A stretch of 64,000 bases of DNA from Patescibacteria group bacterium (GTDB lineage: Bacteria > Patescibacteriota > Patescibacteriia > Veblenbacterales > UBA10138). Location of the stretch: the NCBI GenBank assembly GCA_041645215.1, contig JBAZQK010000001.1, positions 54,091-118,090 of the forward strand, in the 5' to 3' direction. The first letter of the stretch is position 1, and every line of letters begins with the position of its first letter. The translations under genes were made by a program, and so were the position numbers. The notes under the pieces were generated by a model. It made no database searches, was not told where the DNA came from, and worked only from the letters and a program-made list of their open reading frames with translations. Positions 18,893 through 54,905 of this stretch are shown here, piece after piece.

Positions 18893-18970
18893 CGTATGAC
18901 GGGTTGGGGTGGCTAATGGGAATTGAACTCCCGTAATCGCTGCCACAGAGCGGTGTTCTACCATTGAACT
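18893..18970 (-). pseudogene. Degenerate partial copy of tRNA-His (D-arm to T-arm), overlapped by the stop-codon region of the Doc/Fic gene.
   Basis: ccgtaatcgctgccacagagcggtgttctaccattgaacta matches 21786-21826 of the intact tRNA-His apart from one substitution. The 5' acceptor is replaced and the last codons of the Doc/Fic ORF (RRLVQW*) are encoded within the D-arm sequence. Confidence 0.5.
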
Positions 18971-19377
18971 AACCGGCGTTTAATGAATTTTTCTATGTAT
19001 TTTACAGTTTCGTCTTTGGCTTCAGCCGGGCCTTGGGCTACCCAGAGAGCAAAATTATAAAGTTCGGTTTTGTCGGCTTTTAACCACTTGCCGTTTAAAT
19101 ACAAAAAAACCAACAAGGCAGTGACGGCTATTCGCTTATTGCCGTTTTGAAAAGGATGGTTTTTATTTAACAAATAAAATAGCATGGCCGCCTTGCTGAT
19201 TAGGCCATGGTAAAGATATTTTTTATCAAACTTTTGCCAAGGAACAGTCAGGCAGCTTTCCAAAACATTCGGATATCTGGTTGCAAAAGGCGGAATCGGT
19301 TCGTCCCAATTCATGGTTTTGGTGGTCAGGGTGTGGGCGGTGTATTTGATCATTTCCACTGAAATATTCTTAATCAT
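18958..19377 (-). CDS. Fic/Doc-family protein (death-on-curing type toxin/AMPylase-phosphotransferase fold).
   Basis: HPFQNGNKRIAVTA matches the Doc/Fic motif HxFx(D/N)GNKR. 139 aa. Confidence 0.7.
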   Translation of the reverse strand: MIKNISVEMIKYTAHTLTTKTMNWDEPIPPFATRYPNVLESCLTVPWQKFDKKYLYHGLISKAAMLFYLLNKNHPFQNGNKRIAVTALLVFLYLNGKWLKADKTELYNFALWVAQGPAEAKDETVKYIEKFIKRRLVQW

Positions 19378-36232: not shown

Positions 36233-39200
36233 ATGAAGTCGTATAACCATACAGAAGTTGAACTAAAGTGGCAGCGTCGCTGGCAGGATGAAAAAATCTT
36301 TGCGACTGGTGAGGACACTAAAAAAAAACGCAGCTACATTTTGGATATGTTTCCTTATCCGTCGGCCCAAGGTTTGCATGTCGGCCACCCCGAAGGTTAT
36401 ATCGCGACTGATATTTATGCTCGCTACTTAAGGCTTAAAGGAGTAAACGTATTGCATCCGATGGGCTGGGACGCGTTTGGTTTACCCACGGAAAACTTTG
36501 CCATTAAAACCGGACGGCATCCTAATGAAGTTGCGCGGCAAAACATTGATAATTTTCGCCGCCAGATTAAATCTTTAGGATTTTCTTATGATTGGGATCG
36601 GGAGATTAATACCGCCGACCCGGCTTACTATAAATGGACGCAGTGGTTGTTCTTAAAATTGTATGAGCAAGGGCTGGCTTACCAAAAGCAGGCGCCGGTT
36701 AATTGGTGTCCGTCTTGCCAAACTGTGTTGGCCAACGAACAGGTGGCCGGCGGCGAGTGCGAGCGCTGTCATAGCCAGGTGGAGCAGCGTCAGATGAAAC
36801 AATGGTTTTTTAAAATTACGGATTATACCGAGCGTTTGTTAAAAGATTTAACCGGCTTAGATTGGCCGGCGTCAATTGTGGAAATGCAGCGCAATTGGAT
36901 TGGCAAAAGTGAAGGCGCGGAAGTAAATTTTTCAATTATTGATAGCGACGTTAAAAGATTTATTTTGCTTCACGGACGAAGCGCTTCATCTGCCAGCCAT
37001 TTTATTCCGCCGCTAAAAATTGAATTAGAAAAGATGGGTTATGAGGTAGAAACTCCGGATTTACCTAACACCGATTTACCTGATGATATTGAACAAACGG
37101 AATTTGTTAAAGCTAATTGTAAATTGGACCGACATACGGTTATAGTAGGGCACTCTATGGGCGGCGTGGTAGCCTTGCGTTTGCTGGAACAAGGCATAAA
37201 AGTTAATAAGGTTATTTTAATTAGTACACCGTTTACCGGGAAATTTTTGGATAGAAAAGACAGACCGTCTGTAACTAAAGCTTGCCAAAGGGGTTTTGAT
37301 TTTGAAACGATTATCAAAAATGCCAGTAGTTTTATGGTGTTGGGAGACAGTCAGGATCATGCTGTGTCACCAATTGAGGCAGAAATGTTCGCGGAAAAAT
37401 TAAAAGTTAAGGCTAAGATAGTTAAATCAGAGTCGTCACATTTTTGTTCCCAGAATGAGCCTGAGGTGTTGGCCTTTTGTACTAACGCTATTAGAATTTT
37501 TACTACTAGATTGGATACTATTTTTGGCGCGACTTATTTAGTTTTGGCGCCGGAGCACGAGGCTATTAATAAATTACAACCGCAGATTAAGAACTGGCCG
37601 GAGGTTGTGGCTTATATTGAAGCGGCTAAAAAGAAAACCGAGCTAGAAAGGAAAATTGAAACCAAAGACAAGACTGGAGTCGAATTGAAGGGTGTCTTAG
37701 TCGTTAATCCAGCTAACAATGAGTCCATACCTGTGTATGTGGCTGACTATGTATTGATGGGGTATGGTACCGGCGCCATTATGGCCGTGCCGGCGCATGA
37801 TGAGCGTGATTGGGAATTTGCCAAAAAATTTGATTTGTCGACTAAGCAAGTAATAGCCCTGGAAACAGGGTTAAAAAGAAAAAACGAGGAAAGGCGTGAT
37901 GGCGGTTGTGGAATAATTTTTGATTCAAAGTCGCAAAAGTATGCGGTACTTGAAGAAGAGGGCTCTGGTTTTTTGGGTTTTTGCGCGGGTGGATTAGATA
38001 CCAATAAAAATGAGCAGACGGAGGTAATTAGAGAGATTAAGGAAGAAAGCGGCTTATATGATTTTTGTCATATAGAAAAAATAAGTACAGCCTTTTCCCA
38101 TTTTTATAATAGTTTAAAAAATGTAAATCGTTTTGCTCATGCAGTTTGCTATTTATTTATTCTAAAATCAACAAATGTCAAGCCAACCAAGCTTGAAGTC
38201 CATGAAAAGTATAGTTTAGTTTGGAAAGACCCGGCAGAAATAGAGCAAAATTGGACTAAACAGAATCGGCAAGCTGATACTGAGTATTGGGTATATTTTT
38301 TGCACCAAGCAGTAGTCCGTGCGGTAGAACTTGGTTTTGATAAAACTAATACAAATTATAAGTTTAGGGCCACAACTGATTATGGACTACTAATTAATTC
38401 CGAGGAGTTTGACGGTTTGAGTTCTAAAGAGGCCATTTCCAAAATTGCGGAAAAAATTAAGGCCAAGTTAACTACTGAGTATCGCCTGCGCGATTGGCTG
38501 ATTTCGCGGCAACGTTATTGGGGTGCACCAATTCCAATTATCTACTGCCCGCATTGTATCGATAAAAAAGAATTTCCGGAACCCAAATTTATTGTTAATT
38601 GTGCCGATCATGACGGCTTTGAAAATATTATTAGCGGTAAAAAGCATGTGGTCACCCGAGCTCTTAGCTCAGAAGACGACGCCGCAAACTATGCGCAGAC
38701 TGTGCCTGGCGATATTTTGGAAATGATCGATAATAAGACAAAACAGCGAATCTATGTAAAAGTAGTAGGCGCTCAGACATTCAAATCGTTAGACGATCTT
38801 TTTAAAGAACGCAAAATCGCCGAAGCGACATTTAATAGAAAATTCTCGGCCAAAACTGAATTAAGTAATGAATACGAAAAAAATAGAAAAGGCTACACAA
38901 AGCAGATTGATACGTATGGACTGGTTGCTTGGCAAATTGAACTTATCACTAAAGCTGTGCCAGTGCCGGAGCCAGATTTGCCGGTTACTCTGTCCGATGA
39001 CGTGGATTTTCGCCCGCATGGTGAATCACCCTTAGCGCGGTCAGAGTCTTTTCATAAGGTTAAGTGTCTTAAGTGTGGCGCCTCGGCCCGCCGCGAGAGT
39101 GACACTATGGATACGTTTGTGGATTCAGCTTGGTACTTTCTGCGTTATGCTGACCCGCATAATGTTAAAGAGGCTTTTGCCAAAGAGAAAATTAAAACCT

Positions 39201-40099
39201 GGTTGCCGGTAAATTTATATGTCGGTGGCGCTGAACACGCTGTCATGCATCTTTTGTATGCCCGGTTTATTACCAAAGTGCTGCACGATTTAGGCTATGT
39301 GGATTTTAGTGAGCCGTTTGTAAAATTGCGCAACCAAGGCTTGATTATGGGCGAGGACGGACAAAAAATGTCTAAGTCGCGCGGTAATGTAGTGAATCCT
39401 GATGAAATTGTGGCCAAGTACGGCGCTGATACTTTTCGGCTTTACGAAATGTTTTTGGGTCCGCTGGAAGATGTTAAACCCTGGAATACGGCCGGTATTA
39501 TTGGTTTACGGCGATTTCTGGAAAGAGTTTGGAATTTAATATTGAACTATAAAAATACCTCTAAGGCCGAGGTAGCCCTAGAGCCAACCGTAAACTTGCG
39601 GCGCGCGACTGCCCAGACTATAAAAAAAGTAACAGCTGATATTGAAGCTTTCCGTTTTAATACGGCTATTAGCGCGTTAATGAAACTGGTTAATGATTTA
39701 TCGGTTACTCCGGCGCCAGTTGACACTAAAGAGTATGCTGGCGCCATACGCACCTTGTTAATATTGCTTTATCCGTTCGCGCCCCACATAACAGCCGAAC
39801 TTTGGAGTCGGGCTAGTGTGCTGAGGGATAGTTATTTTCCAGATGATGCTGACAAGCAGATTTGGCAGTTGGCTTGGCCGACCTATCATGAGCAGGATTT
39901 AGCAGTGGATTTTATGGTGGTCACCGTACAAGTGAACGGTCGCATGCGTGTCAGCATTAATTGTCCGAGTACGGCCAGCGAGGCCGAGATAGTTGAACTT
40001 GTTAAAAATAATCCAGTCGTGGCTAAGTATTTGGTCGATAAGACCATTAAACGGGTTATTTATGTAGCTGGAAAATTGATAAATTTGGTGGTGGAGTAG
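36233..40099 (+). CDS. leuS: Leucyl-tRNA synthetase carrying three large insertions: an alpha/beta-hydrolase domain, a Nudix hydrolase domain and an unassigned domain.
   Basis: The class-I core is intact (PYPSAQGLHVGHPEGY; KMSKSRGN; editing-domain TTRLDTIFGATYLVLAPEH). After EGAEVNF, about 190 aa are inserted containing a GHSMGG serine-hydrolase nucleophile elbow. About 175 aa between FAKKFDL and GLLINSEEFDGL contain the Nudix box GGLDTNKNEQTEVIREIKEESGL. About 140 extra aa sit between YCPHC and LPVTLSDDV. Total 1288 aa against roughly 820-870 aa for typical bacterial LeuS. Confidence 0.9.
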   Translation: MKSYNHTEVELKWQRRWQDEKIFATGEDTKKKRSYILDMFPYPSAQGLHVGHPEGYIATDIYARYLRLKGVNVLHPMGWDAFGLPTENFAIKTGRHPNEVARQNIDNFRRQIKSLGFSYDWDREINTADPAYYKWTQWLFLKLYEQGLAYQKQAPVNWCPSCQTVLANEQVAGGECERCHSQVEQRQMKQWFFKITDYTERLLKDLTGLDWPASIVEMQRNWIGKSEGAEVNFSIIDSDVKRFILLHGRSASSASHFIPPLKIELEKMGYEVETPDLPNTDLPDDIEQTEFVKANCKLDRHTVIVGHSMGGVVALRLLEQGIKVNKVILISTPFTGKFLDRKDRPSVTKACQRGFDFETIIKNASSFMVLGDSQDHAVSPIEAEMFAEKLKVKAKIVKSESSHFCSQNEPEVLAFCTNAIRIFTTRLDTIFGATYLVLAPEHEAINKLQPQIKNWPEVVAYIEAAKKKTELERKIETKDKTGVELKGVLVVNPANNESIPVYVADYVLMGYGTGAIMAVPAHDERDWEFAKKFDLSTKQVIALETGLKRKNEERRDGGCGIIFDSKSQKYAVLEEEGSGFLGFCAGGLDTNKNEQTEVIREIKEESGLYDFCHIEKISTAFSHFYNSLKNVNRFAHAVCYLFILKSTNVKPTKLEVHEKYSLVWKDPAEIEQNWTKQNRQADTEYWVYFLHQAVVRAVELGFDKTNTNYKFRATTDYGLLINSEEFDGLSSKEAISKIAEKIKAKLTTEYRLRDWLISRQRYWGAPIPIIYCPHCIDKKEFPEPKFIVNCADHDGFENIISGKKHVVTRALSSEDDAANYAQTVPGDILEMIDNKTKQRIYVKVVGAQTFKSLDDLFKERKIAEATFNRKFSAKTELSNEYEKNRKGYTKQIDTYGLVAWQIELITKAVPVPEPDLPVTLSDDVDFRPHGESPLARSESFHKVKCLKCGASARRESDTMDTFVDSAWYFLRYADPHNVKEAFAKEKIKTWLPVNLYVGGAEHAVMHLLYARFITKVLHDLGYVDFSEPFVKLRNQGLIMGEDGQKMSKSRGNVVNPDEIVAKYGADTFRLYEMFLGPLEDVKPWNTAGIIGLRRFLERVWNLILNYKNTSKAEVALEPTVNLRRATAQTIKKVTADIEAFRFNTAISALMKLVNDLSVTPAPVDTKEYAGAIRTLLILLYPFAPHITAELWSRASVLRDSYFPDDADKQIWQLAWPTYHEQDLAVDFMVVTVQVNGRMRVSINCPSTASEAEIVELVKNNPVVAKYLVDKTIKRVIYVAGKLINLVVE

Positions 40100-40301: not shown

Positions 40302-40916
40302 GTGACAGTATTCTCTAAATCAGCTCGGGACCTGGCTAAAATTTGTAAAATTTTAAAACAAGGTGAAGTCGTGGCCGCGCCTACTGAAACCGCCTATGGT
40401 TTGTTGGCGGACGCGACTAATCCGCATGCCATCACTAAAGTGTTTATCATTAAAGGTCGTGCCGAGAAAAAAGTTTTACCGTTGGCGGTTTCTAATTATA
40501 CAATGGCGCAAGAGTTGGCCGTATTTTCACCGCTAGCTAAAAAATTGGCCCGGGGTTTTTGGCCCGGTCCTTTGACTTTGGTTTTACCGGCGCGAGTCAA
40601 ACTGCCGCCTAATGTAGTATCGCTAGATAAATTTGTCGGCTTACGGATGAGTGGCTCAACTTGGCTTACCCAATTAGTTAAAACTTACGGCCGGCCGTTA
40701 ACCGTAACCTCGGCCAACTTATCAGGTCAGTCGTCGCTTTATGATGCCGTTGCCGTACAACAAAGTTTGTCCCGGCGCGGTCTTAAATATATAGTGCGGT
40801 CGCGCCGCTTGCCGCTTAGGCCGACTTCAACCATTGTGAAAGTGGCCGGCCGCCGTTGGCGCATTATCAGACTGGGTGCGATAACGCCGGCTAAATTAAG
40901 AAGTGTGATAAGATAG
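40302..40916 (+). CDS. tsaC: L-threonylcarbamoyladenylate synthase (YrdC/Sua5/TsaC family).
   Basis: KQGEVVAAPTETAYGLLADATNPHAITKVFIIKGR...PGPLTLVLPA is the YrdC domain. Confidence 0.8.
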   Translation: MTVFSKSARDLAKICKILKQGEVVAAPTETAYGLLADATNPHAITKVFIIKGRAEKKVLPLAVSNYTMAQELAVFSPLAKKLARGFWPGPLTLVLPARVKLPPNVVSLDKFVGLRMSGSTWLTQLVKTYGRPLTVTSANLSGQSSLYDAVAVQQSLSRRGLKYIVRSRRLPLRPTSTIVKVAGRRWRIIRLGAITPAKLRSVIR

Positions 40917-41084
40917 AATGAAGTCGCCTTACATGTGGTCAGCCTTAGGGTGAAATTACGAATGACGGGTTAAGAATTAGAGTATTAAATAATTTTAAAT
41001 TTTAAATTCTTAATTTTTAATCAATTTTTAATAATTTAGTAATTCAATAAAAATTAAAAATTTGTAATTAGAAATTTTACTGTT

Positions 41085-42242
41085 ATGCCTTTTCAAGGCC
41101 ACTTTAATTTAGGCGGCTTATTGCCGCAGCGTTTGTCGCCGCAGGTTAAGGCGCTGTACTGGTCGGCGGTGCTGCAAAATTTGGCGCTCGGTATGCTGTT
41201 GCTGTTTGAGCCGATTTATTTATGGCAACAAGGCTTTGGTTTGGCCGGCATAATGAAATTTTTCCTAGCCGTTTACACGGTATATTTTTTCTTGGCGCCG
41301 CTGGGGGCTAATTTTGCCACCCGGCGCGGGTTTGAAAATTCAATTTTCCTGTCAACGATTTTTCAGTTTATTTATTATGTCTGTTTGTTTTTAATTGCTC
41401 AAAGTTGGTATTGGGCCATACCGGCCGTGGCGCTTTACGCTTTGCAAAAAAGTTTTTACTTTCCAGCCTATCACGCTTACTTTGCCCGTTATTCGGATGA
41501 AACCGAAGAAGGCCGTGAGGTTGGCGGCATGTCCGTGTCGCTGGCGCTGGTTTATGTGGCCGGACCATTGCTGGCCGGTTTTTTGCTGACTTTTGGCTCC
41601 TGGTTTTGGTTGTTTTTGGCAGGCGGGTTAATTTTATTGTCGTCCAATTGGCCCTTGTTGCGCCATCGGCCCGAGTTTACGCCGCGCCAATTTCCTTATG
41701 GGGCGGCCTATAAGCGAATTTTCGCGCCGGTCCTGCGCCGCCCGTTGCTGGCGGGCTTAGGTTTTGGCGAGGAGCTGATTTTTATGACTTTGTGGCCGGT
41801 GTTTATGTATGTGCTGGTGGTTAATTACGCCACGGTCGGTATTTTTGTGGCTGTTTCAACACTGATTATGGCTATAGTTACCTTGTATGTCGGCCGGCTT
41901 ACCGATACCAGTAACAAAAAAACGGTTTTGCGGGTTTCGGTGTTATTTAATCAATTGGGTTTACTCGGCCGTTTAATTGTGAGTTCGCCGTTTTTAATTT
42001 TTTTGGTTGATGCCTGGACGCGCGTTACGCATAGTATGATTATTGTGCCGATTTACGCTGTAACTTACCAGCGCGCCAAGCATCAGTCGTCAATGGATAC
42101 GGCCGTATTTTTTGAAATGACTTTGAGTTTGGGTAAAATTTTGGCGGCGTTGATACTGTTAACTATTTTTACAGTTACAACCAGTTGGGGCGCGATTTGG
42201 CTGGTGGCGGCGTTAATGGCGATTTTATACGCGGCGCTGTAG
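41085..42242 (+). CDS. Polytopic membrane transporter, MFS-like.
   Basis: 385 aa with about 11 TM helices. It has an MFS-like pattern but no exact signature motif. Confidence 0.45.
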   Translation: MPFQGHFNLGGLLPQRLSPQVKALYWSAVLQNLALGMLLLFEPIYLWQQGFGLAGIMKFFLAVYTVYFFLAPLGANFATRRGFENSIFLSTIFQFIYYVCLFLIAQSWYWAIPAVALYALQKSFYFPAYHAYFARYSDETEEGREVGGMSVSLALVYVAGPLLAGFLLTFGSWFWLFLAGGLILLSSNWPLLRHRPEFTPRQFPYGAAYKRIFAPVLRRPLLAGLGFGEELIFMTLWPVFMYVLVVNYATVGIFVAVSTLIMAIVTLYVGRLTDTSNKKTVLRVSVLFNQLGLLGRLIVSSPFLIFLVDAWTRVTHSMIIVPIYAVTYQRAKHQSSMDTAVFFEMTLSLGKILAALILLTIFTVTTSWGAIWLVAALMAILYAAL

Positions 42243-44579: not shown

Positions 44580-47500
44580 GTGTTTCCATCAGTCAAAAAA
44601 GGTTCTAAATTAAAGCGTTTGGTTGCCGCCCTGGCAATTGGTTTGGCAATGCTGACTATGGCCACGCCGGCTTTGTTAACTCCGCGGCCGGCGCAGGCGC
44701 AATTTACTGACGTTGCTAACTTAGCAGTTAACACTGGTAAGTGGATATGGGAAAGAATGGTAGAGGTTGGTGACTGGGTTTATAAACATGGCGCGGCCAT
44801 AGCTTTTCGTAACGCCGCCCGGACTTTTACGCAAAAAATCGCTTATGACTCGGCTAATATGTTAGCCTCGGGCGGCCAAGGCCAGACTCCTTTATTTACT
44901 TGGAAAAATTTAGGCAAATCAATTTCTGATGCCGGTGATGAGGCCGCCGGCAGTTTTTTGGACGGCATTGCCTCGGGCGGGGTGTGGGGTAAGTTTAATA
45001 TTTGCGAACCAACCGGACCCAACGCGCCCTTTGCCAAATTAATGATAACTATGCCGGCGTTTAATTTAAATTTAAGCGGTGCTTACAAACCCATTAAGCC
45101 GCGCTGTACCCTGTCTAAATTTAAAGACAACTGGAACAAAGTTTTAAACGACCCCGAGGCTAAAAAAACTTTTCTAAAAGATTTTTCGGTTGTGTTTGAT
45201 CCTAAACAAAGTGAGTTAGGTGTGGGGTTGAATGTGCAAACCAACTTGGTCAAGGAAATTGAACTAAAAAAATATTTAGCAGAAAAAAATGCTACCGCCA
45301 GCGGCGGCATTTTGCCAATCACGCAAACCATTACTCAATTTATTAAAACGCCGGCGCCGCGCATTGAGCGGGCCGCCAATATGACAACCGAGCAGGCCTT
45401 AAAAGAACCACTGGTGTTTACCGGTGATATTCTGGCTGACGCTTTAGGTGTTTTTACCAATACTTTAGCGGCTAAGTTAATGAAGCGGTTAACACAGGGT
45501 GATATTCCCAATCCGGCCGGCATAGGGCCGTCATCATTGTTTGGCGCGGCTTATGGGGCCAGCGGGGTGGAGTATGCGCAAGCCATTAATGCCACGCTTT
45601 TAACCGCCCCTTTGGCCGGCGGCGATGTGTTGGATATGATCAGTGAATTTTCCGGCTGTCCCAGCGATACCCAGTACGCGGCCATAAATAATTGTACAAT
45701 CAACAGTAAATTTGAGCAGGCCTTGCGCAAAGCCGAAGACGGTAACGCGTTAACGGTTAAAGAGGCTATTAACAAAGGCTTAATTAGCGGCGGCTGGGTG
45801 TTTAAGCAAGAAAAACCGCAAAATGTTCGCTTGCCCGATGCTTGGTACTTGTCTGATATTAAAAAGTTGCGTTTGGCCCGTATTTTACCGTTGGGTTGGG
45901 AATTGGCAGTACAAAAAGTGTCTGGCCAGGATGTGAGTTTGAATGATGTGATGAACGGATTCACTGATACCAAAAGTCCGTATTATCATTTGATTGACCC
46001 CAACTGGATATTAAAGGCGCCGCTGTCGCAGTGCCGCCTTAGGGGCCCCGGGCAAATTATACAATCGGCCGGTGGAACGCGTAATGACACTTGCGTTGAT
46101 ACCCAAAGTTGTATCGCCGAAGATGAAGACGGTACTTGTTCGGCCTGGGGCTACTGCACCAAAGATAAAAATATCTGGCGCCTGGGGGGCGATAGTTGTG
46201 AATTTCCCAAAGGCTCGGGCGTCTCACCCTATGCCTCCTGCCAAACCTTTACCGCGCCCGGCGGCAACAGTGTTTCTTATTTGCAGAATTCACTGGCTAA
46301 TTTTGACGACGGAGTTTGCAGCGGGGCGGTCGGCTGCAGGTGGTATTCAACCTTGTTTAATAGTTCGCCGTCGGCTACTTCCGCCAATCGTTATTTGTTA
46401 ACTAAACCGCCTTTATATTTAAAGAATTTAGATAAATTAACTTGCGATGCCGCTAACGAAGGTTGTACTAAATTTTTGCGGCTTACTAATATAAACGCCG
46501 TCGCTTTAGGCAGTGTGGCGGGCGCTAATCCGGCGGAAAAAGTGGTTAATCAGGTGATAAACAGCAGCGACACTTATGATAAATATGCTCAAGTTCAATC
46601 AGTAACTTTAAAATCCGCCCCGGTCCAGTTTAAATGTTATGACACTGACGCCGGCGGTAAGCTTATTACTGGCAATGATTCGCCCGAGTGTAAAAATTAT
46701 TTAAACCTGTGCCGCGCCAATGAGGTTGGTTGCGATCTTTATACGCCCAAGGACGGCTCGCCGGCTATACCGGGAGTATTTGAACCAACTAACACTTGCC
46801 CGGCGCAGTGTGTTGGTTATCAGGTTTACCAACAACAACCGACATTTTTTGAAAAAAATCCAACTCCAGCGCAATATTTTATTCCCGCGACTGCCCAAAA
46901 ATGTTCAGCCACCGCCGTGGGTTGCGAAGAGTTTACCAATGTCAGCCAAAATGAACAGCGTGAATATTATAGCCAATTGCGGCAGTGCATTAAACCGGGG
47001 GCCAAAGCCGCGACTTATTTTACCTGGGTTGGGTCGGAATTAACCGGTTATCAATTAAAACGGTATAGTTTAAAATCATCGTCGGCCTCTTCTTTGGCGG
47101 CGCCGGCCACCACCGATAGTTCCGGCGATTGTCGTCCGAGCGGCTCGGCGCAATATCCCACGGCCGACCCGGATTGCAAACAATTTTATGATGTAGCGGG
47201 TAATGCCCATTATCGTAATTTATCAGTAACCATTACCGCTTCCGACCAGTGTACGCGTTACCGCGCCACCAATGTTAGTAAAACTGATTGTATTGGTGCT
47301 AGTGGTGTCAGCGGCGTTGGCGGCACTGGCGGCGAATGGGACGCGACAGTTGAAAAATGTTTTTACAACGCCATACCCCAAGAAGGCCAGATGTGCAATG
47401 CTTCGCAAGTTGGTTGTCGCGAGTATAAGGGGCCAACCGGTGACAATGTAAAATTGGTTTTCCCCATATCAACTTTTGGCGACAATGACGCCAAGACCAA

Positions 47501-50500
47501 ATGGCCGATTGACGCTTCGCCGACCGGTGATTGGAAATCCGGCACTATATCTAATGATTCGTCAGCCGCTTTTGGCCATTCGTTTGATTCCGGAACCGAC
47601 AGGATTATTTATAAAGATGTCGCCGTTGGCAATATTACGCCTGACCAGCAATATGTGATTTCTTTTTGGGCGAAAAAGAGCGCCTTGGCTGGTAGACCGC
47701 AATCATTTAATAGCGCGCCCTTAAACTCTAGCGCTTTAGTACCCAGTAATGTCAGCGGCGTTAACTTCTGGTGGCAGGGGGTTAAAAAACAATGGAGCGC
47801 CGTGCCTGGCGCCCAGGCGCAGACTTCGCCAATTTCTTTGACCGCCAATCCACCAGTTATTTCTAATTTAATAAGCACTCCGCCGGCCAGCTCGGCCACT
47901 ACCAATTTAACCTGGACAGCTGATACAGCCCCGACTGACCAAATAACCGTTAGCATTGATAACGGGGTCCTGCCACCGACTACTTACCTGGCTGATTCGC
48001 GCTGTGCTAACGCTGGCTCCAAAACTGATACGCCTTGTACTAACAACGACACTTGCCGTGTTCTAACTTCTACTTGTCGGCCGGCTGATTTTAAATGTAA
48101 GGGCGGACCCCAAGACGGGTTAGCTTGTCCGACCGAACAGAATTCCGAGTGTCAGAATACAACCGCCACTTGCGCTAGCGGCAAATGTTCCAACAATGAT
48201 ACTATAAGCTGTACCGGCACTGATGCTACCCCCTGTCGCAATACCACCGCGACTTGTGAATCAACCACCAAGAAGTGTTCCGGTCCTTATAAACAAAATG
48301 AAATATGCAGTGTTAATAATGACTGCGTTGACCAAACCCCGATTTGCCAAATAAATACCCCAATCCCGGTCAAAACCGGAACCGTGGCGGTTAACTTGCC
48401 TACTCGTATTTACAGCGATTATACTTTACCGATCGGCGCTACTTATAATTTATCAGTGGCTTACAGCGGCGGCAGTACGGTAACTAAACAAGTGGCGGTT
48501 AAGGTTAATAATCCATTGGGTCAATTTAGCCTAACCAGTCCGCTTAACGGCGCCACCAACCAATCAATTACGCCGAAAATTGAATGGACCGCTTCGGCGC
48601 GGGCGACTAATTACGCCTTAACAGTGGGCAGCGATTCTTATACTTTAGCCGCCACTGAAGTTTGCAGTGTTGCTTCTTGTTCGTTCACTGTTCCGGTCAA
48701 TCGCAAATTACAATACAACCAAGCTTACGCCGTATCAATTCAGGCGGCCACTGATATTGTTACAAAAAACAGTGATAATAGTATTTCCTTTACCACTGAA
48801 CAAGCCTCGGCCGGCGTTTTTGGTTTTAACGCGCCGGCGGATGACCCGCTGACGACCGGTGGTGAAGACGAAAGATTAAGCATTCCAGTATCTAATATGG
48901 AACAGGGGTCAATTCCGGTAAATATCGCCTGGTCGCCCTCTAGTAACGCGACTTCGTACATTGTTACGGTTTACCAGCAAGAAGACGCTGGTATGAGTTT
49001 AAAATGGAGTACAACCACAACCACCGCTACCGCCGTGGCAGTGGATAAAGGTCTTTTGAAATATGATACTTATTGTAGAATTGAGGTTACAGCCTTAAGC
49101 GGGGCCGCCAGTAAGAGCATTAAACTAGAAGGTTCAGCTGGCAACAATCCTTGTCGCACGCAACAGCCGCCCAAGTCGGCGACCGTGACTGACCCAGCCT
49201 CGGCCGCCGTCATAAAAACCCTTAACCCGATTTTTAGGTGGCAAAGAGGGTGGTGGAATATATCATATAAAATTGAGGTTCAAGTTAATAATGGCGTGAG
49301 TTTTGTTGATTTGTGCGGCCGGGATAATTTGACCACTACGGTATTAACCACTCCGGAATTATCAGCCGGTTGCGGCAACAATTTAACCTTTAAGGATTTA
49401 GGCAGTTATCGCTGGCGGGTAATTTCAAAAAACGCTCATCCTAATGTGGCTTATTCAGTAGTTTCGCCCGGTGCCACTGTGGATTGGAGTTATTTTAGTG
49501 TCAGCACTTTTGAACCGTCTTACGGCGGCAGTGGCGTAACTTATGGCAGTTTGCCCAGCGTAGTCGGCTCCAACAAAGAAAATCCGACACCGCCGGCGCT
49601 TAAGGGATTGCAAGCCGTTTTGAGCGGCAGTTCAGGCCAGTACAGTCCTGCTAAATGTACCGATCCCAATAATCCGCCGGTTATAGTTGGTAAGCAAGAT
49701 TATAAAGTAACGCTTGCTTGGGATGCTTACCAAAATCCGACTGACAAAAAACAGGCGTTAGGGTTTAATTTGTACCGCGGTATTGGCGGTCAGGCGGTTA
49801 CTTATTTGGGCTGCTTAGGCGCAACTGAGGTTTGTAAGCCGAATACTCCGGTTGGTGCTATCACCAATACGACTTACCTTGACAGCAGTAGTAGAATTAA
49901 AGATTTAACCGCCAACCGTTTTGTTTATCAACTTCGCGCTTTTAATACCGGCGGCGAATCCAAAGGCATTTCCGTGGCCGTGGCTACATCTAATCCGCCC
50001 ATTAAGCCGTCTTGTGTGCCGACCGCGGTTACGCCGGATAAAGGTGATATTGTGGTTAAATTAATGGTAGATGGCCAGCCAGCGGCTGGTGTAAGTTCTT
50101 ATGAATTAAATAGTGCTGAACATGCAGATGTGGCTATTTCAACCTCAGGCGATAAAATTTCTGGCCAGGCTCCAGGTGATTATTTATTTAATTATTTAGG
50201 CGGCAGTTTAACTGGTTTTACTAATGCGGAAATTTATTCTCTGGAGGCCAGCCCCGGCGGCAGTATAAATTGTGTGGGCGCGCCGTGCGGCGAGGTGCAG
50301 GGCATTTTGCAAGCCGGACAAACTTTAACTTATACTATTAATTTCGTTACTCCGCCGGCGCCGCCAGCCTCCGTTCCGCCCAACACCAACTTGGATTTTA
50401 GTGTGGCCAGCGGCGGCTTAGCCAGCGATTGGCAGCTTTATACTTTTGGTCCTTATGAATTGCCAGCCCCGGTTGATACCGCTAATGGCGTACGGGTTAG

Positions 50501-53500
50501 AATTAGCGCCGCCGACCGGTTTGTGATTGATAATGTTATCTTACAGCAAGTGGCGGACACGGTTTATGTGAATAAAGGGTCTTGGAAAATGCCTAAGGAC
50601 GCCGCTGGCGGTGATTTGTGCAAACTTAAAGATATCGGTTGCAAGGCTTATACCGACCGGCAAAAAACCACTTATAATTTAACCGGTTTTAGTAAAATCT
50701 GCCGCGCCGAGGCAATTGGCTGTGAGGCCTTGGTTGATACCCGTAACTCTGATTCAGCCAAAGAGATTTCGGCCGCGGTTAGCGGGCAAACAATTTATAC
50801 CCCGGCTGACCAGCTGGTGTACCGGGTTTACGACACCAAAAAGGCCTGCGCCGCCAGTATGCAGGCCTGTCAGCGTGTGGGCGAGCCGGTATTATCAGCC
50901 ACCGGCCAAGCGCAAAGTTGGGGTGATAAATTTGTAAAGCTTAATCCGGACACTTTCAGCGGAAATAATTCGCCGCTTTGTTCAGCCCGGCAAAATAGAT
51001 GTCAGGTATTTAAAACCGGCAGTGTTCCCCATTATTTTAAAGACCCGGGTAATAATGTTTGCGAATATAAGCAGTTAACGCCGGCTGACCAGTATGGCTG
51101 GTATAAACAAGGCACGAGCGAGGCTTGTAACTTGTTAGCTAATGCCAGTTTTGAGAATTTTGAAGCAGCTAATAATATAACTGGCCAGCCAATCACCAAC
51201 AGCGGTACGGCCGGCGATAATATTGAAGATGCGTTTAAATATTGGCAACGAAATAATAGCAGTTCAACTGAACAGGGGGCTTATTTATATGCCCTGCCGT
51301 CGTTTGGTCAGGGTTATTATAATGGTAATACCATTTTGAAAGTCAAGAGCGTGGCCCAGCCTTATTCTGGGGTATGGAGTGAGGTGGTGGAGTTGCCAAC
51401 AGTGGATACGGCTAACCCTCGCTACTTTACAGTGGGGGCGCGTTTATACGTACCGCTTGGCGCTAAAATGGATACGCCTTGGATACTTAGCCAGCACTCT
51501 TATAATGGTGATGAGCCTACACCAGTCAATTGCCCCCAGCGGCTGGTTAATGGTGTTAATGTTAGTTCTTGTCATCATTATGAGTATGAACCAAATGAAC
51601 CAGGGAATGATTATACCGTAACCGAAGCTGATAAAGGTAAATGGGTTTATAAATCCGCTACCATCAAGGCGGACCCGGGAGTAAAGTATGTGTCTTTAGG
51701 AATTATTGTGGCGACTGACAAGGATTGTGCGAATGGCAGATGTAAGTCTGATCAAGAAATTTACGTTGATGGCGTGAGTATAACCGAAGGCACCGCGCCT
51801 TATGCTTATGCTTGCCCCAGCGAAATGTCCAGCTGTAAAGCTTACCGTGATCCGGCCTTAACCAATAGCACATATTATTATTTGGACAATAAAAAATTAG
51901 ACCGTAGTTCTTGCGGCGGTAAGGTGAGTGAAAAAGACGGCTGTTTACTGCTTAATGATTTGTCGCAGTCCGGTGAGTTGCCTTGGAACGCTAACCAAAG
52001 TTATGGCCAAAGCCGTAATCAGGATGGTGTCGCGGTCGCGTCTGTGTCAGGTGTGGGGCGTTGTTCCAATGACCCTACTCAAACCAAAACCTGCACCAAA
52101 TCCAGCGATTGCGGTTCAACCACTGCTTATTGTGATTATAAAGCAACTAATGATAGTGTGGCGCCGGACACCAATCTGATTCTTAAGGTGCGGCGCGATC
52201 GGGTGTGTTCGGAGTGGCTGTCTTGCCAAACCAGCACCACTGTAACCGATCCGCAAACCGGCAAAACTCGCGAAATTTGTTATTCACTGGGCCGTTGCGA
52301 CCAGGTTAGCCAATCCAAAGCCGCCGGGCAGTGCGCTAATTGGCTGGAGCCAGAAGCGCAACAACATCCGTTGGACGAGGCTGATTATGTCGGCCGCAAT
52401 GTTACCTGGGCCGGCCAGGAATATTCCGGTTATTCCATACCGGGCCTGTGTTCGCTGGATATGGTTAGTTCCACACCAGCTTGCGGGGTGGCTATTAGTA
52501 AGGCCAAAGCCTGTCGTATTTATCCCGAGGGTGACGCGCCGTTCCCGGCCAAAGTGGCGCGGTTTGATAGCGATAAGGCCGATACCGCCAAAATTATTAC
52601 CCGTTCCCCCGGCTACAAAGACGCTAATGTGTGTCAGCCGGGTGAGGATTGCGAATGCAGTTACCAGCGCGCTAATTATACTAGTGAAACTAAGTTCTTT
52701 GGTTACAAAGGCACGCCGCCATCGGTTATTAATAAGGTGACTGAAGATTGTGGATCAGGTCAGACTAATCAAGAAATTTTGGAAAAGTGCGCCGAACAGT
52801 CAAAGTTAAAGCAGATTACTTTGGCGCGCGGCTTAAAGGGTTATTGTTTGGAGACTGATTCGTCGCGGCGCATTAATGCCAGCCAAGATCAAGCTTGTTT
52901 AACCTGGTTGCCGATTGATGTGGTTCAGGGCGAGACCTCCATTTTTGACGACAAACCCGAAGCCGGTTTTACTCCCCAGCGCACCGATGGCAACTTGCTT
53001 TATTGTCTGCAGGCCAATAGCAATGCTAATCGCGGTACAAATAAATATGAAGTCATTTCTAATAATATGGGCCGTAAGGTAGAAGTAAATAATTTTTTTG
53101 GCGGCGGTGGAGCATCTGGAGTTGGTGATGCAATGTTTGACATGATGAATATAGTAAAATGTGACGGCGCCGATGTTTGCAAAGAGCGTGGCACTTTCAG
53201 CACCGACTCCGAATATATATGGAGTCATGTTGAACATGGGTTTGGTTTTAGTTTGTCTTTAAGTGATTTTGAAAAACAGTTGGGCGGTATACAAGCGATT
53301 GATGCTATTAAGATTAAAGGTATATATAATGTATACCCCTTTGAACTCAACTTAAGCCGTTCTGTGGAATCGGCTGGAGATTCTTGGTCTGGCGGTTCAG
53401 GTGGAATTGGCATAAGAGTCAAATTTAACCCGGCTGACCCGGATAAATTTCTTGACGTGCAATTGTATCATACCCCGGCGAGTTACGGGTTCTTTAGGTT

Positions 53501-54905
53501 TAAAATAGTGATTTATCCTCGCGAATGGTGTTATAGTTTGGCGCAAGTAGTGGATAAACAACAAACCATCCCCAACAAAGCCCAAACTAATCGGGTGAAT
53601 ACTAGCTCAACTTATTCAATTTCTGGTTTAGGTTATAAATATGACAAAGATTCGCAAGGTAATCCGATTATTCCACCATTTGGCGCGGTTTTTAACAGCC
53701 CGTTGCAACCGGAAAATATTGATAAAATTGTGGCTGTTGTTCAGGAACCGGCGCAACAAAATAACCGATATCAAAATAATTCTGCCAACGCTATCTTTAG
53801 TTGCCGCACCGATCGCAGTGGTTTTGCCTGCGGCCAATGGATGTGCTTGGTTAATGGGCCGGGCGATATTAATGATGCTAGCAAGGTGGGGCAGGCTTGC
53901 AAAGTTACAGCCAACGCAACTTCATATTGTGGTTTAACACCAGCTTGCCCAGCCGGGGCTACTTGCGAAGCAGATTATCAAAAAGACCAGCCTTATATTT
54001 GTACCGGCACTAATCCGGTAATTACTATCCCCGGTAGCGACGGCGTGGCTGTGCTGACTAAACTTTATGAGCCAATTCAGGAGATCTTTGCTAAAGTTTA
54101 TAAGCGTTATGACTGGAGTGGCAAAGACAAAGCTTATCGGGAAATAACGGATAATAATCTTCTTCCGTCGTCACCTGATATTAGTAGTGATCCATCATTA
54201 ACCGACCCGCCAATAATAAGCAGTGTGACGCGCGACGACAAAGGCCGGGTTACGGGCGAAGATGTTAAATATAATTTCAGTATTTCCACTGTTCAGCAAA
54301 GCCGCGCCACTGGTGAAATTAAAGGCGTTAGTCCGTTAGCCGTAACCGCCGCCTTTTACGCTTATAATCCGAACGGCAACCAGATGCCCCTCAGGTTTGT
54401 GGGGGTTGATTGGGATAATAAATTACAGCCTGATAAAAATATTCAGGTACTAGCCTCGTTAAAGAATCACAAGCCGATTTGCCAAGCGCAATATGTCTGC
54501 GCCGGCGACCCCACTTTGTCTTGCGCTGATGTTAACGATACTAAACAGTGCGGCAATAAAGGGCCTTGCCAGCGAAATAAAGATTTTAATTTTGGCGACA
54601 GCCCCGATGCCTGTATAGACGACGAATCCGACCGCGCCGGCTACTTCTTCTACACCAATGTTTATACTTGTTCCGGGTCTGGTCATCCTAATTGGGATTC
54701 TAATAAGGGCGCTTGCGTTTATGAACCGAGCGTGGCCGTGCGCGATAACTGGGGGTGGTGGAGCAACGGCCAATATGACGACGCTGACGCTATTATTGCT
54801 GGCGCCACTGCCAATAATAAAACTTGGTTAGATTATAGTAAAAAGTCTGATACTACTGATACTGCTAATCCGGTCAAGATAATCGTAAAACCCAAGAGCC
54901 AGTAG
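44580..54905 (+). CDS. Giant secreted/surface protein of 3441 aa, Cys-, Thr-, Asn- and Gly-rich, with GTG start and signal peptide.
   Basis: Signal peptide LAIGLAMLTMATPALLTPRPAQAQ. A single uninterrupted ORF of 10.3 kb with more than 150 Cys residues, many in CxxC/CxxxxC spacings. Only short antisense ORFs overlap it. Confidence 0.6.
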   Translation: MFPSVKKGSKLKRLVAALAIGLAMLTMATPALLTPRPAQAQFTDVANLAVNTGKWIWERMVEVGDWVYKHGAAIAFRNAARTFTQKIAYDSANMLASGGQGQTPLFTWKNLGKSISDAGDEAAGSFLDGIASGGVWGKFNICEPTGPNAPFAKLMITMPAFNLNLSGAYKPIKPRCTLSKFKDNWNKVLNDPEAKKTFLKDFSVVFDPKQSELGVGLNVQTNLVKEIELKKYLAEKNATASGGILPITQTITQFIKTPAPRIERAANMTTEQALKEPLVFTGDILADALGVFTNTLAAKLMKRLTQGDIPNPAGIGPSSLFGAAYGASGVEYAQAINATLLTAPLAGGDVLDMISEFSGCPSDTQYAAINNCTINSKFEQALRKAEDGNALTVKEAINKGLISGGWVFKQEKPQNVRLPDAWYLSDIKKLRLARILPLGWELAVQKVSGQDVSLNDVMNGFTDTKSPYYHLIDPNWILKAPLSQCRLRGPGQIIQSAGGTRNDTCVDTQSCIAEDEDGTCSAWGYCTKDKNIWRLGGDSCEFPKGSGVSPYASCQTFTAPGGNSVSYLQNSLANFDDGVCSGAVGCRWYSTLFNSSPSATSANRYLLTKPPLYLKNLDKLTCDAANEGCTKFLRLTNINAVALGSVAGANPAEKVVNQVINSSDTYDKYAQVQSVTLKSAPVQFKCYDTDAGGKLITGNDSPECKNYLNLCRANEVGCDLYTPKDGSPAIPGVFEPTNTCPAQCVGYQVYQQQPTFFEKNPTPAQYFIPATAQKCSATAVGCEEFTNVSQNEQREYYSQLRQCIKPGAKAATYFTWVGSELTGYQLKRYSLKSSSASSLAAPATTDSSGDCRPSGSAQYPTADPDCKQFYDVAGNAHYRNLSVTITASDQCTRYRATNVSKTDCIGASGVSGVGGTGGEWDATVEKCFYNAIPQEGQMCNASQVGCREYKGPTGDNVKLVFPISTFGDNDAKTKWPIDASPTGDWKSGTISNDSSAAFGHSFDSGTDRIIYKDVAVGNITPDQQYVISFWAKKSALAGRPQSFNSAPLNSSALVPSNVSGVNFWWQGVKKQWSAVPGAQAQTSPISLTANPPVISNLISTPPASSATTNLTWTADTAPTDQITVSIDNGVLPPTTYLADSRCANAGSKTDTPCTNNDTCRVLTSTCRPADFKCKGGPQDGLACPTEQNSECQNTTATCASGKCSNNDTISCTGTDATPCRNTTATCESTTKKCSGPYKQNEICSVNNDCVDQTPICQINTPIPVKTGTVAVNLPTRIYSDYTLPIGATYNLSVAYSGGSTVTKQVAVKVNNPLGQFSLTSPLNGATNQSITPKIEWTASARATNYALTVGSDSYTLAATEVCSVASCSFTVPVNRKLQYNQAYAVSIQAATDIVTKNSDNSISFTTEQASAGVFGFNAPADDPLTTGGEDERLSIPVSNMEQGSIPVNIAWSPSSNATSYIVTVYQQEDAGMSLKWSTTTTTATAVAVDKGLLKYDTYCRIEVTALSGAASKSIKLEGSAGNNPCRTQQPPKSATVTDPASAAVIKTLNPIFRWQRGWWNISYKIEVQVNNGVSFVDLCGRDNLTTTVLTTPELSAGCGNNLTFKDLGSYRWRVISKNAHPNVAYSVVSPGATVDWSYFSVSTFEPSYGGSGVTYGSLPSVVGSNKENPTPPALKGLQAVLSGSSGQYSPAKCTDPNNPPVIVGKQDYKVTLAWDAYQNPTDKKQALGFNLYRGIGGQAVTYLGCLGATEVCKPNTPVGAITNTTYLDSSSRIKDLTANRFVYQLRAFNTGGESKGISVAVATSNPPIKPSCVPTAVTPDKGDIVVKLMVDGQPAAGVSSYELNSAEHADVAISTSGDKISGQAPGDYLFNYLGGSLTGFTNAEIYSLEASPGGSINCVGAPCGEVQGILQAGQTLTYTINFVTPPAPPASVPPNTNLDFSVASGGLASDWQLYTFGPYELPAPVDTANGVRVRISAADRFVIDNVILQQVADTVYVNKGSWKMPKDAAGGDLCKLKDIGCKAYTDRQKTTYNLTGFSKICRAEAIGCEALVDTRNSDSAKEISAAVSGQTIYTPADQLVYRVYDTKKACAASMQACQRVGEPVLSATGQAQSWGDKFVKLNPDTFSGNNSPLCSARQNRCQVFKTGSVPHYFKDPGNNVCEYKQLTPADQYGWYKQGTSEACNLLANASFENFEAANNITGQPITNSGTAGDNIEDAFKYWQRNNSSSTEQGAYLYALPSFGQGYYNGNTILKVKSVAQPYSGVWSEVVELPTVDTANPRYFTVGARLYVPLGAKMDTPWILSQHSYNGDEPTPVNCPQRLVNGVNVSSCHHYEYEPNEPGNDYTVTEADKGKWVYKSATIKADPGVKYVSLGIIVATDKDCANGRCKSDQEIYVDGVSITEGTAPYAYACPSEMSSCKAYRDPALTNSTYYYLDNKKLDRSSCGGKVSEKDGCLLLNDLSQSGELPWNANQSYGQSRNQDGVAVASVSGVGRCSNDPTQTKTCTKSSDCGSTTAYCDYKATNDSVAPDTNLILKVRRDRVCSEWLSCQTSTTVTDPQTGKTREICYSLGRCDQVSQSKAAGQCANWLEPEAQQHPLDEADYVGRNVTWAGQEYSGYSIPGLCSLDMVSSTPACGVAISKAKACRIYPEGDAPFPAKVARFDSDKADTAKIITRSPGYKDANVCQPGEDCECSYQRANYTSETKFFGYKGTPPSVINKVTEDCGSGQTNQEILEKCAEQSKLKQITLARGLKGYCLETDSSRRINASQDQACLTWLPIDVVQGETSIFDDKPEAGFTPQRTDGNLLYCLQANSNANRGTNKYEVISNNMGRKVEVNNFFGGGGASGVGDAMFDMMNIVKCDGADVCKERGTFSTDSEYIWSHVEHGFGFSLSLSDFEKQLGGIQAIDAIKIKGIYNVYPFELNLSRSVESAGDSWSGGSGGIGIRVKFNPADPDKFLDVQLYHTPASYGFFRFKIVIYPREWCYSLAQVVDKQQTIPNKAQTNRVNTSSTYSISGLGYKYDKDSQGNPIIPPFGAVFNSPLQPENIDKIVAVVQEPAQQNNRYQNNSANAIFSCRTDRSGFACGQWMCLVNGPGDINDASKVGQACKVTANATSYCGLTPACPAGATCEADYQKDQPYICTGTNPVITIPGSDGVAVLTKLYEPIQEIFAKVYKRYDWSGKDKAYREITDNNLLPSSPDISSDPSLTDPPIISSVTRDDKGRVTGEDVKYNFSISTVQQSRATGEIKGVSPLAVTAAFYAYNPNGNQMPLRFVGVDWDNKLQPDKNIQVLASLKNHKPICQAQYVCAGDPTLSCADVNDTKQCGNKGPCQRNKDFNFGDSPDACIDDESDRAGYFFYTNVYTCSGSGHPNWDSNKGACVYEPSVAVRDNWGWWSNGQYDDADAIIAGATANNKTWLDYSKKSDTTDTANPVKIIVKPKSQ

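Follow-up and report, generated by a model that had tools for sequence, protein, structure and literature searches.

Predicted serine hydrolase, Nudix and ASCH-like domains nested in the leucyl-tRNA synthetase of a Patescibacteria bacterium

The leuS locus

We analyzed a 64,000-nucleotide stretch of DNA (hereafter the window) from a Patescibacteria group bacterium (assembly GCA_041645215.1, contig JBAZQK010000001.1, positions 54,091 to 118,090 of the forward strand), in which a complete leuS open reading frame (ORF) encodes a leucyl-tRNA synthetase (LeuRS) of 1288 amino acids. The protein contains three additional domains, assigned to the YdeN/RBBP9 serine hydrolase family, the Nudix family and a predicted ASCH-like fold, respectively (Table 1). 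The ORF opens with ATG and is free of internal stops. Its product scored 981 bits against the equivalog hidden Markov model (HMM) TIGR00396, the cutoff of which is 548.4 bits (E=5e-295), aligned in five collinear blocks with the Thermus thermophilus LeuRS of structure 1h3n (E = 6.5e-215) and matched the LeuRS editing domain PF13603 at 3.5e-58.

A preliminary description made from the letters of the DNA had recognized the protein as LeuRS by its HVGHPEGY, KMSKS and editing motifs and had proposed that three large in-frame insertions expand it to its present length; both points held. The HIGH motif is H49-V-G-H52 (nt 36377-36388), within HVGHPEGY at residues 49-56, and KMSKS occupies residues 1045-1049 (nt 39365-39379). 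The T-rich editing peptide TTRLDT (residues 424-429) supplies T424, T425, D428 and T429, and the editing motif AHDERD (residues 521-526) contains H522-D523-E-R525-D526. The query has the same catalytic Rossmann fold, ZN1, CP1, ZN2, KMSKS, anticodon-binding and C-terminal domains as the bacterial LeuRS of known structure (1h3n/2byt and Escherichia coli 4aq7), whereas it differs from them by about 440 additional residues arranged as three nested domains, two of which lie inside CP1, and by the lack of the leucine-specific domain. The latter (T. thermophilus residues ~581-637) was absent from the query and from all 120 of its closest relatives among LeuRS of the Candidate Phyla Radiation (CPR). 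HIGH, KMSKS and the CP1 editing residues were invariant across all classes of insert architecture found in CPR LeuRS. As far as its architecture is concerned, the protein is almost certainly the working LeuRS of a Patescibacteria (CPR) bacterium, in which the three nested domains leave the synthetic and editing sites undisturbed.

The public NCBI protein of identical sequence (P0002; 1044 aa), which is named 'alpha/beta fold hydrolase', begins at an internal TTG, codon 245 (window position 36965). Since the ORF runs 244 stop-free codons further upstream and this part includes the HIGH motif, the annotation is truncated and misnamed, and it could make the metagenome-assembled genome (MAG) appear to lack a LeuRS.

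Table 1. Segments of the leuS gene in the window, with the landmarks or evidence by which each was assigned.
Feature	Residues	Position (nt)	Strand	Landmarks or evidence
leuS ORF, complete	1288 aa + stop	36233..40099	+	ORF, TIGR00396, five collinear blocks vs 1h3n
N-terminal catalytic half	1-240	36233..36952	+	HIGH, ZN1 ligands C159/C162/C176/C179
Insertion 1 (slot 1), predicted YdeN/RBBP9-type serine hydrolase	241-419	36953..37489	+	Pfam, profile search, triad
CP1 editing-domain core	420-542	37490..37858	+	T-rich peptide and HDERD
Insertion 2 (slot 2), Nudix domain by profile and predicted fold	543-711	37859..38365	+	Family profile, motif, predicted fold
CP1 end, return to catalytic core		38366..38557	+	First ZN2 knuckle C772-P-H-C775
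Insertion 3 (slot 3), modelled ASCH-fold (PUA-like beta-barrel) domain	776-907	38558..38953	+	Profile, model, Foldseek
C-terminal half	908-1288	38954..40096	+	Second ZN2 knuckle C945/C948, KMSKS, anticodon-binding and C-terminal domains

Positions of the insertions in the LeuRS framework

The boundaries of the insertions were taken from the breaks in the alignment to 1h3n and lie within about 25 nt of those first estimated. Insertion 1 falls between T. thermophilus LeuRS residues 241 and 243, insertion 2 between residues 363 and 375, and insertion 3 between residues 442 and 444. At the first of these sites (slot 1), the insertion occupies the turn of the first CP1 beta-hairpin; the hydrolase extends to residue 419 and the T-rich peptide starts at residue 424, which, read from the sequence, places the slot four residues upstream of this editing peptide. 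Slot 2 is a CP1 loop about 20 residues past the editing residue Asp523, and slot 3 follows directly on the first C-x-x-C knuckle of ZN2, before the second.

A scan of GTDB genomes for slot 1 with a single sequence returned two cassette-bearing loci, together with 17 other matches that covered the LeuRS flanks only. In these 17 non-CPR LeuRS genes the flanks are 0-10 codons apart, and the segment of about 180 residues is thus a true insertion into a plain loop. Insertions 1 and 2 are both nested in CP1, which is itself an inserted domain. In a 2026 survey of domain insertions the LeuRS editing domain was classified as an insertion-only module, never a host (PMC13114784), whereas the editing domain of the present LeuRS hosts two domains. 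The G+C content at third codon positions (GC3) was 0.35, 0.28 and 0.36 for insertions 1, 2 and 3, respectively (0.33 overall), compared to 0.46 for the core, which is consistent with foreign donors of lower G+C content.

Insertion 1 belongs to the YdeN/RBBP9 family of serine hydrolases

On the basis of homology to the solved YdeN and RBBP9 structures, from which its fold is predicted, insertion 1 was assigned to the minimal alpha/beta serine hydrolases of YdeN/RBBP9 type, as had been proposed from its GHSMGG nucleophile elbow. The isolated segment scored 30.2 bits against PF06821 (Ser_hydrolase; Pfam gathering threshold, GA, 22), the score in the full protein being 25.5 bits, and it matched Abhydrolase_6 at 1.7e-10. 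A profile of 19 homologous segments from other LeuRS (hereafter cassettes) matched Bacillus subtilis YdeN (1uxo) at 7e-26 and human RBBP9 (2qs9) at 3e-20.

The putative catalytic set comprises the oxyanion residues H247-G248, the nucleophile Ser308 (nt 37154-37156; GHSMGG, residues 306-311), Asp375 and His403. Among 68 cassettes Ser308 and His403 were both conserved in 68/68, Asp375 in 65/68 and the H-G oxyanion pair in 65-66/68; triad and oxyanion HG are therefore nearly perfectly kept in cassettes that are otherwise just 22-55% identical. The ratio of nonsynonymous to synonymous substitution rates (dN/dS) of insertion 1 was 0.24 with respect to the sister allele on a syntenic contig from the Joint Genome Institute (JGI; contig L001, described below), at saturated dS. 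We consider it likely, judging from these conserved residues, that the hydrolase is catalytically competent.

As in YdeN and RBBP9, the domain is a minimal alpha/beta-hydrolase of about 180 aa with the H-G oxyanion, the G-H-S-x-G elbow, the Asp and the His. The differences are that insertion 1 is an internal domain of an aminoacyl-tRNA synthetase (aaRS) and not a free protein, and that Glu108 of RBBP9 is not evidently conserved in it. In cells, RBBP9 forms acyl-enzyme adducts with single Leu/Ile, Met, Phe, Tyr and Trp residues, for which the alpha-amine must be free, and amide, ester or thioester bonds are all possible according to its authors (PMC8866121).

Insertion 2 is a Nudix domain with a substituted Nudix box

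Insertion 2 was confirmed as a Nudix domain by family profile, motif and predicted fold. The Nudix box spans residues 586-608 (nt 37988-38056), with REIKEESGL at residues 600-608, and retains G586, R600, E601, I602, E604, E605, G607 and L608. The preliminary description had called this box complete, which does not stand: the first Nudix-box Glu (G-x5-E) is Lys592 in the query, a position that is Glu in 50/57 homologous inserts. The R-E-x-x-E-E-x-G signature was conserved in at least 53 of the 57 Nudix inserts, and the metal-binding glutamates in 56.

HMM and profile searches supported the family assignments made at first for both insertion 1 and insertion 2. The isolated insertion 2 scored 21.0 bits against PF00293 (E 3.5e-4), that is, 0.1 bit under the GA of 21.1, whereas the family profile is strong: all 19 of the homologous slot-2 inserts scanned matched PF00293 at E<=1e-3 (best 9.4e-17), and the profile of the family matched 153 solved Nudix proteins, with an Ap4A hydrolase at the top (2.6e-9). 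The AlphaFold2 model of insertion 2 (predicted local distance difference test, pLDDT, 89.3) matched 564 PDB chains at E<=1e-3, and the top ones were all Nudix enzymes. The nearest structures are an Enterococcus faecalis MutT/Nudix protein, E. coli RppH, AtNUDT7 and ADP-ribose pyrophosphatases; these neighbours span enzymes acting on diadenosine tetraphosphate (Ap4A), RNA 5′ ends and ADP-ribose, with no assignable subfamily-specific specificity motif in the insert. Insertion 2 thus shares with the Nudix hydrolases (Aquifex aeolicus Ap4A hydrolase 3i7u, RppH and the ADP-ribose pyrophosphatases) the predicted fold and the R-E-x-x-E-E-x-G helix, and differs from them in being nested in CP1 and in the Lys that replaces the first box Glu in the query lineage.

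The dN/dS of insertion 2 against the L001 allele was 0.086 at a dS of 0.53. Insertions 1 and 2 are thus under purifying selection, and the catalytic residues of the hydrolase and Nudix domains are conserved. From the retained residues, catalytic competence of the Nudix domain is also predicted, with less confidence than for the hydrolase, as somewhat more probable than its loss.

Insertion 3 has a predicted ASCH-like fold

Insertion 3, which had been left unassigned, is now assignable as an ASCH-fold domain by profile and Foldseek comparisons. The query segment itself gave no PF04266 match in Pfam even at E<=10, and a direct sequence search of the PDB was likewise empty. An exhaustive HMMER search identified stand-alone homologues of 124-128 aa (e.g., P0121, 52% identity) and the same domain inside other CPR LeuRS and one valyl-tRNA synthetase (ValRS). 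The resulting family profile matched the solved ASCH protein PH0355 at 4.7e-7, as well as PF0455 and PF0470. Expanding the profile search brought in proteins named "ASC-1-like (ASCH)" by JGI or bearing PF04266, and 9 of 24 profile-linked family members matched PF04266 directly (best 1.1e-7). The model of insertion 3 (pLDDT 91.4) was matched by Foldseek to PH0355 (2.4e-7) and YqfB (3.5e-5), with TM-scores of 0.6-0.74 on the target, and further to PF0470, EF3133 and a Lactobacillus crispatus ASCH domain. A 3663-aa protein (P0122) in which "11 stretches" matched insertion 3 was rejected as a relative, being a eukaryotic WW-repeat/Sec16 protein with summed weak partial matches.

ASCH proteins deacetylate N4-acetylcytidine (ac4C) in tRNA, a reaction for which two residues of the motif G-x-K-x-x-[E/T]-x-R, the Lys and the Glu/Thr, are essential (bioRxiv 10.64898/2026.02.27.708502). 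The corresponding octapeptide in insertion 3 is G802-K-K804-H-V-V807-T808-R809 (nt 38636-38659), which keeps the Lys and the Arg and has Val807 at the position of the catalytic Glu/Thr, so that one of the two essential residues is missing. The ASCH inserts of more distant CPR LeuRS retain K-T-I-E-T-R. Compared with PH0355, the E. coli ac4C amidohydrolase YqfB and the T. thermophilus ASCH protein, insertion 3 has the same modelled beta-barrel with the Lys and Arg of the motif, and is distinguished by Val807, by the missing direct Pfam match and by its location between the zinc knuckles of an aaRS. We therefore describe insertion 3, on the strength of profile and model, as having an ASCH-like fold and do not call it an ASCH amidohydrolase: lacking the essential Glu/Thr, it is probably not an ac4C amidohydrolase. 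The module probably binds RNA or a nucleoside without hydrolysing ac4C, as far as its motif indicates.

Distribution of the inserts among CPR synthetases

The 120 best-scoring relatives of the LeuRS and the query were classified with HMMs built from the inserts. As the query itself carries inserts, this census is biased to insert-bearing proteins. All closest relatives with a source name were Patescibacteria/CPR, among them Sungbacteria, Kerfeldbacteria, Komeilibacteria, Uhrbacteria, Doudnabacteria and Pacebacteria. Most of the 120 carry inserts, in mixed combinations. The hydrolase occupies slot 1 as the only insert in 40 proteins and is combined with the Nudix domain of slot 2 in 26; a further 26 have the Nudix domain of slot 2 only, and 11 have no insert. 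Rarer arrangements comprise a hydrolase in slot 2 (six proteins), in slots 1 and 2 both (P0016) or in slot 3 (three proteins, one of them also with Nudix), a Ham1/ITPase domain in slot 1 together with Nudix in slot 2 (P0054 and P0058; Ham1p_like PF01725, 3.6e-16), and small inserts of 85-130 aa without family assignment in slot 2 (P0033, P0087 and P0093). Within the census, the three-insert form with the ASCH variant of the query was found only in the query lineage.

Counted by slot, the YdeN-type cassette was present at slot 1 (n=72), slot 2 (n=7) and slot 3 (n=3). Within the YdeN family, the hydrolases of slots 2 and 3 fall into lineages of their own, with one slot-3 copy nearest to the slot-1 cassettes, which implies that such cassettes were acquired independently several times and changed slot at least once. 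Slot 3 also holds the ASCH domain in other CPR LeuRS. This domain occurs outside LeuRS as well: a CPR ValRS (P0124, 1080 aa; NF004349, 728 bits) contains an ASCH-like domain at residues 223-349, just before the "ATTRAET" editing peptide and thus in the equivalent of slot 1, as well as a histidine-phosphatase domain (His_Phos_1) at residues 612-789. The nesting of domains in CPR synthetases is therefore not limited to LeuRS. Every host observed is an editing synthetase of class Ia, with the slots grouped within the editing domain or next to it.

Two further observations concern the relatives. The ZN1 ligand Cys162 (nt 36716-36718), a Cys in the query, is Asp in about half of the CPR LeuRS examined, including 29/42 of the class in which only slot 1 is occupied. 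A contig titled 'uncultured Gammaproteobacteria bacterium' (L002; CAZMMW010000014.1) encodes a CPR-type LeuRS whose slot-1 cassette is 68% identical to the query segment; it is probably a mis-binned or mislabelled MAG.

Exchange of cassettes between nearly identical alleles

The JGI metagenome contig L001 is syntenic with the window and encodes a LeuRS (P0001, 1283 aa) of the same three-insert architecture. Between the query and P0001 the core is about 98% identical, with a range of 96-100%, insertion 3 100% and insertion 2 90%, with insertion 1 at only about 34-38%. The same pattern is seen at the DNA level, where identity is about 100% on either side and 46-62% across nt 36908-37496, with the breakpoints at the domain edges; insertion 2 constitutes a second divergent tract, at 83-94% identity. 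Homologous recombination with donors that had diverged would be expected to leave such a mosaic. For each of the two slot-1 cassettes, that of the window and that of L001, the nearest cassette (79%) is found in a LeuRS with only 70-75% identity in the core. When all slot-1 pairs were considered, cassette identity and core identity were poorly correlated (r = 0.20), and in many pairs the cores were 75-98% identical with cassettes of only 22-55% identity. The query thus exemplifies an insertion system of CPR class Ia synthetases that is widespread, combinatorial and subject to recombination.

Outside leuS, the comparison of the window with L001 revealed another, strongly divergent tract (nt 40387-41133; 45-68% DNA identity), which covers the 3′ part of the Sua5/YrdC gene (40302-40916) and intergenic sequence, and suggests another recombination replacement beside leuS.

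Possible roles of the inserted domains

Taken as a whole, the reading that we favour is that the inserts are nested and selected domains, of which the hydrolase and Nudix modules are active enzymes working in cis with LeuRS; including the cis-coupled function, we hold it tentatively, at slightly less than an even chance. In the proposed mechanism, these two modules would add a further clean-up by hydrolysis. Aminoacyl esters or amides whose alpha-amine is free would be cleaved by the serine hydrolase, as they are by RBBP9, and the domain would act as a second deacylase beside the CP1 pocket; the Nudix domain would cleave adenylated dinucleotides such as Ap4A, other nucleoside-diphosphate-X compounds, or an RNA 5′ end as RppH does; and the ASCH module of the query lineage would bind RNA or a nucleoside. 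An auxiliary deacylase is preferred because the chemistry of RBBP9 is of the aminoacyl-ester deacylase type and because its attachment lies four residues from the editing peptide. The repeated, non-random presence of the same YdeN-type family at three slots of LeuRS, with two copies in one protein, also speaks for this proposal, as do the catalytic residues kept across diverged cassettes, the purifying selection and the turnover of cassettes. As for a coupling of the inserts to the quality control of Leu-tRNA in particular, we lean mildly towards doubt.

Among the substrates first suggested for the Nudix domain, Ap4A is a legitimate candidate and aminoacyl-adenylates are not. Nudix enzymes cleave nucleoside-diphosphate-X compounds; an aminoacyl-adenylate is an acyl monophosphate and no nucleoside diphosphate derivative, and hence not a plausible substrate.

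Several observations weigh against active enzymes coupled to LeuRS. At two loci whose gene order matches that of the window (L022 and L023), the encoded LeuRS has no inserts and is 835-840 aa long; leucylation can thus do without the inserts, which are accessory to it. In the cassettes, Glu108 of RBBP9, the ligand of the alpha-amine, aligns to a conserved Arg, in a loop whose alignment is uncertain, and an aminoacyl specificity is consequently not readable from the sequence. The query Nudix domain has a Lys at the first box Glu and scores just under the Pfam threshold, and LeuRS is not known as one of the strong producers of Ap4A. Finally, the domains found at the same slots (Ham1/ITPase and ASCH, with a histidine phosphatase in ValRS) are of the generic kind that serves nucleotide house-cleaning, a repertoire with which a model of lodged passengers agrees as well as proofreading does.

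According to this alternative, the main rival, autonomous house-cleaning or salvage hydrolases are lodged in insertion-tolerant loops of an essential and constitutively expressed protein that serves as scaffold, and act on free metabolites, with a function unrelated to the charging or editing of Leu-tRNA. We regard it as possible, if on balance rather doubtful. The repertoire of Nudix, ITPase, ASCH, histidine phosphatase and small esterase domains resembles a nucleotide-sanitising toolkit, close syntenic relatives do without inserts, cassettes are exchanged freely, the ASCH insert has stand-alone homologues, and the canonical editing site is fully kept, so that a second one is not obviously needed. 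Against lodged passengers stands the fact that the YdeN-type family was gained several separate times at three sites, specifically of LeuRS, and that the hosts are all class Ia editing synthetases with the slots in or beside the editing domain. In three loci with an insert-less leuS, no stand-alone YdeN, Nudix or ASCH gene was present within ±6 kb; this is neutral in itself, but gives no sign of a simple gene capture.

It is improbable that the inserts are non-catalytic expansions, that is, structural, tRNA-binding or protein-interaction modules whose enzymatic activity is irrelevant or lost. Such a role would suit the ASCH insert without its essential Glu/Thr, Lys592 in the query Nudix domain and the missing leucine-specific domain in all 120 CPR LeuRS; insert-less CPR LeuRS, however, lack the leucine-specific domain too, the triad and oxyanion HG persist almost perfectly across highly divergent cassettes, and the metal-binding Nudix glutamates are kept in all but one insert. 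Two ideas of compensation were rejected as well. The inserts do not make up for a degenerate or lost CP1 site, because no architecture class departs from the canonical residues of the editing and synthetic sites, nor for the missing leucine-specific domain, which insert-less CPR LeuRS lack as well.

An artefact, either an assembly chimera or an unspliced mobile element such as an intein, is very improbable indeed: the slot-1 allele of the window is known from one assembly only (P0002 being the same sequence) and the GC3 of the inserts is below that of the core, but the three inserts all keep the reading frame and have the edges of their folded domains exactly at loops, the independent JGI contig has the same three-insert architecture with an identical insertion 3, and dozens of independent assemblies bear one or two of the same inserts, this recurrence making a chimera very unlikely. 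Inteins were rejected from the junctions (V/KRFILL...CTNA/I, A/LETGLK...NYKF/R and C/IDKKEF...LITK/A, with slashes at the insert edges), where neither the first residue of an insert nor the +1 extein residue is Cys, Ser or Thr and no insert ends in His-Asn. Chance resemblance is no realistic alternative either, given E-values of 5e-295 for the LeuRS HMM, 7e-26 for the hydrolase profile against YdeN, 2.6e-9 for the Nudix profile against the PDB and 2.4e-7 for the model of insertion 3 against ASCH structures.

Relation to known editing modules

The known editing modules of aaRS are CP1, INS, N2/AlaX, YbaK and DTD, a list that has been stable for years. Among the editing modules acting in cis or in trans, none is known to be an alpha/beta-hydrolase, a Nudix or an ASCH domain. 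Other aaRS with extra modules, such as the IleRS of NF040702 with its GNAT domain, and AlaX, YbaK and DTD, follow the same principle of an accessory module, often for quality control; the inserts of CPR LeuRS differ in being nested, combinatorial and exchanged as cassettes. No published description of these inserts was found in the literature searched, with most subscription journals outside its coverage. Since related sequences have been public for years, the novelty lies in the recognition and analysis of the architecture and not in the sequences.

Editing by aaRS is a textbook case of translational quality control, against which a CP1 domain that hosts hydrolases, their repeated recruitment and the exchange of cassettes between nearly identical alleles stand out. 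Should the hydrolase act on aminoacyl-tRNA or aminoacyl esters, it would represent a new class of editing domain and a natural form of plug-in proofreading, useful for the engineering of aaRS. Even if the inserts are passengers, they provide a natural map of insertion-tolerant sites in LeuRS and ValRS and illustrate how genome-reduced symbionts package house-cleaning enzymes.

A more far-reaching scenario, which we consider unlikely, would see in them a new, modular layer in the quality control of CPR aaRS. The YdeN/RBBP9-type domain would be a second, independently evolved cis-editing aminoacyl-ester deacylase beside CP1 and the first editing domain of any aaRS known to be an alpha/beta-hydrolase, its specificity being swapped between strains by cassette recombination and matched to the non-cognate amino acids met by scavenging symbionts; the Nudix domain would remove Ap4A or Np4-capped by-products, and the ASCH modules would act on the bound tRNA as readers or erasers of ac4C. 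Eukaryotic ac4C12 is specific to tRNA-Leu and tRNA-Ser.

Genomic neighbourhood

The gene order shared among the syntenic loci is PNPase, DksA-like, LspA, ComM, LysM/M23, LeuS, Sua5, MFS, RrnaAD and a giant ORF. Eight tRNA genes (Ser, Gly, Phe, Pro, Lys, Arg, His and Arg) lie at 9-25 kb of the window, all on the minus strand, and none is a tRNA-Leu gene; a weak ninth candidate at 18910-18978 (minus strand) scored 38 bits in Rfam, against a gathering score of 29, and was not called by ARAGORN. The giant ORF of the window (44580-54905, plus strand; 3441 aa) is followed on the same strand by ORFs of 991 aa (55496-58471) and 665 aa (58542-60539), and none of these three ORFs had a Pfam match at E<=1e-5. 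In the syntenic loci, too, a giant ORF of more than 2500 aa is found at the corresponding position.

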